Sequence record: OR896157.1
Length of the DNA: 64,000 bases
Reading direction: 5' to 3' (one strand)
Origin: a phage
Below, piece after piece: positions 14,347 to 14,587 of the stretch. The notes beneath the pieces were generated by a model. It did no database searches. It was not told the DNA's origin and worked only from the letters and a program-made list of their open reading frames with translations. Each line of letters starts with the position of its first letter. The first letter of the stretch is position 1. A program made the translations under genes and the position numbers.

Positions 14347-14587
14347 TGCAACAACACCCCGTCCGAAGACAGGGCGTAAGAATCGACAGCACCACCTACT
14401 GGCAGATGGCCTGCAGAAGTTCATTCCCAGCGACTCGGAGGCATCAGTCTCGCCCCTGGGAATATAGCGTCGTGGAGGTGTCACTTTGCAGGTGATTAAC
14501 AACCGGTGGCTCCGTAGAACCGTTGCGGCAAGGGCTAACCTTCTCTTCTAACACGACGTCTTCATACGAGAGCTGCAACTCTCTGTA
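14347..14587 (-). other. GC-rich, highly structured non-coding region
   Basis: nested inverted repeats (cccag...cuggg, gcag-gccau-cugc, CUUCGG hairpin at 3' end); the only in-frame reading is an Arg/Cys-rich extension. Confidence 0.4.

Follow-up and report, generated by a model that had tools for sequence, protein, structure and literature searches.

A previously unannotated RNA family in the tRNA gene clusters of T4-like phages of Enterobacterales

The tRNA cluster and its last unit

The DNA analysed here is a 64-kb stretch of a T4-like phage (64,000 nucleotides, record OR896157.1; hereafter the window), in which ARAGORN predicts 18 tRNA genes on the minus strand (14804-19943). The last of these is followed downstream by a GC-rich region at 14347-14587, whose surroundings match Erwinia phage COW86c and Enterobacter phage PG7 (Karamvirus) at 99% identity in blastn searches. 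Along the minus strand, the gene order is tRNA-Arg, tRNA-Cys, tRNA-Leu and tRNA-Thr (14804-15138), a 66-aa ORF, the region of the RNA described below, the late promoter motif TATAAATA and the gene at 13657-14310. The features that delimit the locus are as follows.

14588-14788, minus strand: 66-aa ORF (phrog_11654), inserted between tRNA-Thr (14804-14879) and the RNA
14378-14593, minus strand: body of the RNA gene, 216 nt, matched at full length (positions 1-216) by covariance model R1 with 237 bits, E 1e-67
14355-14376, minus strand: terminator-like hairpin CGCCCUGUC-UUCG-GACGGGGUG, 9 bp, followed by UUGUUGC; the hairpin is kept in relatives
14339-14346, minus strand: late promoter motif TATAAATA, which serves the next gene (13657-14310) and lies outside the RNA

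The initial annotation had described a GC-rich stretch flanked by the stop of ORF 14588-14788(-) and by TATAAATA at 14339-14346(-), and both its position and its composition are borne out. The GC content of 14347-14587 is 54.8%, compared with a mean of 40.1% (sd 3.8) for 241-nt windows, which makes it the highest-GC 241-nt stretch of the entire 64 kb, its value being reached nowhere else. This composition is what a folded RNA needs, as the neighbouring tRNA genes do. Nested inverted repeats had also been reported, and a repeat finder recovers them at 14423-14430/14456-14463 and 14468-14474/14552-14558, while the CUUCGG hairpin said to end the region is the one with which the minus strand closes (14376-14355). 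Inclusive of this hairpin, the length of the RNA is about 240 nt; its body accounts for about 215 nt.

The hairpin at 14355-14376 carries a U-poor tail in this phage, and a simple terminator scanner gives no call there. Its counterparts in relatives bear UUUUU tails and show compensatory changes in the stem, and the record of phage Mineola annotates the corresponding hairpin as a terminator. The late promoter motif beyond it is found 17 times in the window where 4.2 occurrences are expected, including one at 19949-19956(-), 6 nt ahead of tRNA-Lys (19866-19943), with which the cluster begins. An inverted repeat, TTGTTGTAT / ATGCAACAA (14333-14354), wraps the promoter that follows the RNA, and phage Pet-CM3-4 has a different inverted repeat at the corresponding promoter site.

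A protein-coding function for the region, whether as an N-terminal extension of ORF 13657-14310, as in the COW86c record, or as a small ORF, is barely credible. A TTG-started frame of 281 aa does cross part of the region, a 44-aa ORF is present at 14444-14578, and several GenBank records place a "hypothetical protein" over it. The TTG-started frame is the sole long one, and it is indeed the implausible Arg/Cys-rich extension that had been pointed out from the outset. Stop codons interrupt all six frames in every homolog, the indels that separate homologs are not multiples of three, and the PHROG profile of the downstream protein is already fully covered (1-178 of 178) by translation from the ATG at 14310. 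The supposed extension would also have to run through both the terminator and the late promoter. The gene COW86c_143 (6299-7132 of locus L002), which is annotated through these two elements and over the RNA, is spurious, as are the "hypothetical protein" calls across the RNA in several GenBank records.

Distribution and genomic context of the family

The element is present in approximately 190 of 50,697 phage records (191 and 188 records by blastn). Its carriers are phages of Klebsiella (Jiaodavirus), of Enterobacter, Cronobacter and Citrobacter (Karamvirus), of Salmonella (Moonvirus), of Escherichia (EcS1, Kagamiyamavirus), of Erwinia (Roskildevirus) and of Serratia (PS2 and 4S). The covariance model R1, which comprises 216 positions and 61 pairs and was built from a fuller structure written on a MAFFT alignment of 13 copies, matches the window exactly once (14378-14593(-)) and gives full-length matches of 106-244 bits in 19 of 19 distinct family loci.

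The initial annotation called for an Rfam search and for a comparison with homologous loci in relatives. The search returned no family match for the GC-rich stretch: among the 4227 models of Rfam 15, the best match was Ysr49 (17.9 bits against a gathering score of 95, E 0.27), and a scan of 6 kb at E ≤1 placed no match in the region. Within 14347-14593, neither ARAGORN nor the Rfam tRNA model detects a tRNA-like element. The comparison with relatives, in turn, revealed a conserved fold with compensatory changes, which is treated in the next section. Among the listed blastn records, none carries an RNA annotation at this locus, which instead shows nothing, "hypothetical protein" or "terminator", and a literature search by loop sequence and for small RNAs of T4-like tRNA clusters found no description of a ~215-nt RNA. 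A scan of viral contigs with the P5-loop motif yielded the known isolates plus one chance match (L011); a gapped P5...P6 pattern retrieved 32 loci from metagenomes, of which 6 were real and all of these were close relatives, with another (L043) being a chance perfect hairpin; and two P6 patterns gave five new loci in viral contigs, none of which matches R1. Since such motif scans recovered close relatives only, the family appears to be confined to T4-like phages of Enterobacterales. The ~215-nt RNA is a previously unannotated family and a third kind of phage RNA beside RNAC and RNAD.

In the family carriers, the RNA always lies within or at the end of the tRNA cluster and on the strand of the tRNAs. 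Its 5' start falls 0-6 nt past the 3' end of a tRNA in Mineola, EcS1, BovinicusUrsus and KM16, and its 3' end falls 2-3 nt before tRNA-Gly in the Serratia phages PS2 and 4S and in the UViG L018. Some phages have a tRNA immediately next to it on either side, and in KM16 the gene is found mid-cluster (Trp, RNAC, Gly, ~215-nt RNA, Pro). An ORF intervenes between tRNA and RNA in the window and in KP1079, CkP1, Cronus and FBB1; as these ORFs belong to unrelated families, no link between ORF and RNA is indicated. The downstream neighbour likewise varies: many phages have a phrog_2280 gene there, in PS2 and 4S a tRNA-Gly follows and the terminator is absent, and KM16 continues with further tRNAs. Every flanking protein falls into a PHROG without an assigned function, and none offers a functional hint. 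Because the flanking genes vary on both sides, the RNA is best regarded as an autonomous module tied to tRNA genes and not to protein genes, which argues against a leader or riboswitch. Upstream of the RNA in PS2 (L009 1033-1374) and 4S (L025 ~440-600), about 340 nt of conserved non-coding DNA close with a T-arm, acceptor and CCA that resemble those of a tRNA but are left uncalled by ARAGORN, and this sequence may represent yet another stable RNA.

This variability bears on the wider proposal that the element acts in cis, be it as a terminator or attenuator, as a riboswitch or leader for read-through, or as a stabiliser of a 3' UTR. The arrangement in the window is suggestive of such a role, in that the element sits between an ORF and a terminator hairpin, right upstream of the next gene, and two hairpins precede the terminator. 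The changing downstream partner is difficult to reconcile with it, however, and the next gene has its own late promoter that comes after the terminator. The terminator hairpin is also free to vary, in contrast to the RNA body with its invariant loops, and an alternative pairing between body and terminator was not seen. A cis-acting element is consequently considered distinctly unlikely.

Fold and covariation

The structure comprises a 5' domain, consisting of P1, P2 and inner hairpins, and a 3' domain, consisting of P5 and P6, and the covariation described below shows this two-domain fold. Its elements in the window, in 5' to 3' order of the RNA, are given here.

14565-14587, minus strand: P1, the 5' hairpin UAC(A)GAGAG-UUGCAG-CUCUCGUA, which begins directly after the stop codon of ORF 14588-14788
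14552-14561, minus strand: 5' strand of P2, AGACGUCGUG, preceded by a conserved junction UGA/UAA; its partner is 14466-14474
14481-14542, minus strand: interior of the 5' domain, with P3a at 14530-14542, P3b at 14502-14529 and P3c at 14481-14495
14573-14578, minus strand, with 14486-14491: P1 loop UUGCAG and P3c loop CUGCAA, exact complements and a proposed kissing pair
14466-14477, minus strand: 3' strands of P2a and P2, CUCCACGACGCU, which close the 5' domain
14424-14462, minus strand: P5, an 11-bp stem plus GAG/CUC, with the near-invariant loop GAGACUGAUGCCUCCGA at 14435-14451
14386-14414, minus strand: P6, GCAG-G-CCAUC / GGUGG-UG-CUGU, with loop UGCCAGUA at 14397-14404
14378-14385, minus strand: conserved 3' tail CGAUUCUU; tRNA-Gly follows 2-3 nt after CGAUU in PS2, 4S and L018

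When 13 diverse copies are aligned with plain MAFFT, RNAalifold predicts a consensus of 35 pairs, 16 of which have changes on both sides. In the model-based alignment of 19 phages, double changes occur in 40 of the 61 pairs, and 91.7% of cells form standard pairs, compared with 38-48% after displacement of the 3' partners by 1-3 columns. The covariation score of 0.396 likewise exceeds the 0.07-0.10 of the controls, and none of 500 shuffles reaches the observed values of pairing and covariation. This second alignment is fitted to R1, and the independent MAFFT result and the shifted-partner controls agree with it.

Folding energy gives a different picture. The 241 nt of the minus strand have an MFE z of -1.67, with 11 of 200 shuffles folding as well, and the corresponding values are -0.85 for the RNA body and -1.1 for the mean of 20 homologs; the plus strand has no excess stability (z -0.03). 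The region had been called highly structured, a description that is upheld by covariation across relatives but not by folding energy, and stability relative to shuffled sequences, which had been set beforehand as a check, proved only borderline for the 241 nt and for the body alike. As z is weak across the whole family, it is not used as evidence here, and the structure is accepted on the basis of covariation; stability above shuffles, applied as the only criterion, would have led to the mistaken rejection of a real RNA. On the opposite strand, the invariant G-U pairs of P6 and P5 would turn into A-C mismatches, and together with the lack of a plus-strand excess in stability they identify the functional molecule as the minus-strand RNA, the strand of the tRNAs.

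The individual helices differ in how they are preserved. A hairpin folds at the position of P1 in every homolog, and all 8 of its pairs display double changes, with 77% of cells paired because this segment aligns poorly. P2 is a long-range helix with one bulged base and an extension by GAG/CUC; 96% of its cells are paired, 5 of 9 pairs are doubly changed, and the same pairing is detected by the repeat finder (I4). Double changes are found in 3 of 4 pairs of P3a, 8 of 9 of P3b and 2 of 4 of P3c, and in the Serratia phages this interior is replaced by one long irregular hairpin. The P5 stem (94% of cells paired) has double changes in 9 of 11 pairs, and 17 of the 19 aligned phages share its loop (GAGACUGAUGCCUCCGAG) without any change, with EcS1 and FBB1 as the exceptions. 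In P6, every cell is paired (100%) and 3 pairs are doubly changed.

The loops of P1 and P3c pair in 90% of cells, versus 33-45% with a shifted partner, and the complementarity is kept through the compensatory variants UUACAG/CUGUAA in Erwinia phages (Cronus, FBB1, L047) and CUUGCG/CGCAAG in Mineola and CkP1. Given exact complementarity and two independent compensatory variants, a kissing contact between the two loops is probable.

Near-invariant loops and compensatory stem changes across at least six genera point to purifying selection on the fold. These same observations contradict the view that the region is a decaying remnant with no function of its own, derived either from tRNA pseudogenes or from acquired GC-rich DNA. 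The elevated GC in an AT-rich genome and the adjoining tRNA genes might have been read in that way, but the ARAGORN and Rfam tRNA-model searches find nothing tRNA-like in the region, and a remnant is thus exceedingly improbable. Of the two interpretations offered by the initial annotation, a horizontally acquired remnant is unsupported, since the GC content is accounted for by folding and the element is maintained, at the same type of tRNA-cluster site and with compensatory changes, in ~190 related phages. The other, a structured RNA, is the one that the data favour, the element being conserved, non-coding, encoded on the minus strand and rich in compensatory base-pair changes.

Relation to RNAC and RNAD of T4

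Small RNAs other than tRNAs have precedent in this part of the genome. RNAC and RNAD of T4 have been known since the 1970s and count as late RNAs (PMC9697503). Both are products of the tRNA region that accumulate late and lack a known function (PMC3014915; PMC9697503), which a more recent study states again for RNAD (PMC12685909). In that work, from 2025, the T4-like phage BW1 was evolved on semi-permissive E. coli and acquired the same single SNP in rnaD in all lines, a convergence which hints that RNAs of the tRNA cluster affect host range (PMC12685909).

Both RNAs have counterparts in the window, away from the GC-rich region. A blastn search with T4 rnaC finds a homolog at 17978-18116(-), with 79% identity over all 139 nt (E 5e-30), that sits between tRNA-Trp and tRNA-Gly, is unannotated in the COW86c record, and has a tRNA-like 3' half that ARAGORN miscalls as a 95-nt tRNA-Met (17977-18071). 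A search with T4 rnaD gave no blastn match in the window. R2, a covariance model made from five T4-type rnaD sequences, does locate a probable RNAD homolog at 19594-19698(-) (19 bits, E 0.014), right after tRNA-Asn and with a hairpin next, and a clearer one in Salmonella phage KM16 (L005:309-415; 34.9 bits, E 1e-6). Both of these RNAD-type genes lie between tRNA-Asn and tRNA-Asp, and KM16 carries all three RNAs, namely RNAC, RNAD and the ~215-nt RNA.

The resemblance of the ~215-nt RNA to RNAD (rnaD, species 2 RNA, 119 nt) lies in its place in the tRNA cluster, on the tRNA strand and with a start right after a tRNA 3' end, and in the layout of its 5' domain. Both RNAs begin with a 5' hairpin, after which (U)AAG(U/A)CGUC pairs with G(A/G)CGC; the resulting long-range helix is bulged and surrounds an interior that varies. 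The Serratia phages have, like RNAD, a single long hairpin as this interior. When the window was tested for this RNAD-type layout, P1 was found to be followed by UGAAGACGUCGUG pairing with CACGACGC, and relatives have UAAGUCGUC with the partner GRCGC. The likeness does not go beyond the layout and one short motif. By itself, the 8-mer is at chance frequency in the window, where [AG]AG[AT]CGTC is observed 6 times against 5.4 expected. PS2 and T4 RNAD have the 12-mer CGGUAAGUCGUC in common (p ~0.003 in local alignment); when 5' domains were aligned locally to RNAD types and compared with shuffles, significance was attained only by PS2 and 4S, and only through this 12-mer. An nhmmer search of five T4-type loci also has its best match at the 5' module of RNAD, over 25 nt and with a marginal E of 0.03-1.7.

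The differences are considerable. The ~215-nt RNA is nearly twice as long as RNAD, its interior is multi-branched and has a probable kissing loop, it possesses an extra 3' domain (P5 and P6), and it lacks the ACCA 3' end. Neither covariance model detects the other family, and an RNAD homolog coexists in the same genome. From the resemblance in layout and motif, the 5' domain might possibly be a distant RNAD paralog or a shared recognition module. With RNAC (rnaC, species 1 RNA, 139 nt), which is presumably freed by tRNA-processing nucleases, the ~215-nt RNA has in common that it is a small non-coding RNA gene among phage tRNA genes; unlike it, it has no tRNA-like end (T-arm and acceptor half), and there is no sequence similarity between the two. 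The RNAD-RNAC precursor of T4 is a classic substrate of RNase E.

An analogous position at first raised the suspicion that the region is orthologous to rnaD and rnaC of T4, and a diverged copy of RNAD followed by RNAC, too distant for recognition by BLAST, would be in keeping with several of these facts. In T4, the two genes lie in the same relative place, between the last tRNA and the terminator, and their total length is similar; the shared 5' layout and the 12-mer of PS2 might also be taken to favour such a copy. Orthology was nevertheless rejected, as the true homologs reside elsewhere in the window and all three RNAs occur in KM16. Direct alignment of the region to T4 rnaD and rnaC gives no meaningful similarity, R1 applied to the five T4-type loci with filters off returns noise only (≤6 bits), R2 finds nothing in 14347-14593 at E ≤10, and T4 contains nothing like the 3' domain. 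As R1 stays at noise level in T4-type loci, reciprocal homology to RNAD is not demonstrated, and a diverged RNAD/RNAC copy is very improbable. With separate RNAC and RNAD homologs and no cross-matches of R1 and R2, the window phage would have three distinct RNA genes in its tRNA cluster, and by sequence comparison the ~215-nt RNA is the third, one lacking in T4.

Two further observations concern the T4-type loci. The 12-mer GCCGCAACGGUU (14518-14529(-)) recurs, with AAGGUU and AGCCC nearby, downstream of T4 rnaC (L001 ~2852-2863(-)); it is unconserved within the new family, and is probably due to chance or a trace of an old recombination. T4-type phages additionally contain an unannotated conserved element, ACACUUGCCUWGCAGGUGGAACCCCGACAAGG (L001 2865-2905(-); also L021, L023 and L024), which separates rnaC, or in JS10 rnaD, from the terminator.

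Beyond T4, phages and bacteria have other complex-folded non-coding RNAs next to their tRNA genes, among them GOLLD, ROOL and the Y-RNA-like YrlA. The ~215-nt RNA is much smaller than GOLLD and ROOL and, unlike YrlA, has no tRNA-like module; the weak Rfam matches to YrlA in the window fall on tRNA genes and not on the GC-rich region.

Proposed biogenesis and mode of action

Taken together, the locus is probably a minus-strand gene, the final one of the tRNA cluster, for a compactly folded non-coding RNA of ~215 nt that is stable and acts in trans, and we hold this joint reading with good confidence. The most likely route to such a molecule is its excision from the tRNA transcript. The late promoter motif ahead of the first tRNA gene suggests that the RNA would be co-transcribed with the tRNAs, from which it could be released by the enzymes that process tRNA precursors, its 5' end arising by trimming after the 3' end of the upstream tRNA. 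In PS2 and 4S, cleavage of the following tRNA-Gly by RNase P would generate the 3' end, whereas in the present phage the UUCG-capped intrinsic terminator would both make and protect it. As the 66-aa ORF separates the RNA from tRNA-Thr in the window, the 5' end here is possibly that of an mRNA 3' UTR. The 5' and 3' domains may even be two RNAs, cut apart at the AU-rich CUAUAU linker. By analogy with RNAC and RNAD, the product would be expected to accumulate as a stable RNA.

Action in trans could be imagined as the presentation, by a scaffold that varies freely, of the invariant loops GAGACUGAUGCCUCCGAG and UGCCAGUA, which would bind a conserved partner of host or phage origin, most plausibly belonging to the translation or tRNA machinery. 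The P5 loop contains CCUCC within GAUGCCUCC (14437-14441(-)), and CACCUCC occurs within CCUGCAAAGUGACACCUCC (14474-14480(-)) just after P3c, the latter motif being missing from Erwinia and Serratia phages. The P5 loop CUGAUGCCUCCGAG and the second motif, CACCUCC, resemble the 3' end of 16S rRNA with its anti-Shine-Dalgarno sequence, GAUCACCUCC. These CCUCC motifs suggest, at the level of sequence, a link between the RNA and translation. A more specific proposal, that the family is a new class of compactly folded, trans-acting RNA with an invariant loop that works as a mimic or decoy within the translation apparatus, is speculative and would be given a low probability; if true, the RNA might titrate either Shine-Dalgarno sequences or a factor or nuclease specific for the 3' end of 16S rRNA, and more generally it might blunt host defences that attack tRNA or rRNA. 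The phage's own RNAC was also considered as a target of the P5 loop, through the 7-nt GAGGCAU, and was rejected because the match is unconserved in KM16 and reflects the internal pairing of RNAC.

Significance

The ~215-nt RNA adds a clean new structured RNA to what is known of an intensively studied group of phages, and it bears on the long-standing question of RNAC and RNAD. Its ~190 sequenced carriers among phages of Klebsiella, Enterobacter, Serratia and Erwinia include many candidates for phage therapy, and a covariance model would serve to correct annotations in their genomes and supply a new family of the Rfam type. The well-resolved fold, the probable tertiary contact and the invariant loops provide concrete nucleotides to mutate, and the module of hairpin, UAAGUCGUC and helix that is common to both RNAs offers a comparative handle on RNAD. 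Were a role as decoy or mimic to hold, it would furnish the first functional handle on the 50-year-old puzzle of RNAC and RNAD.
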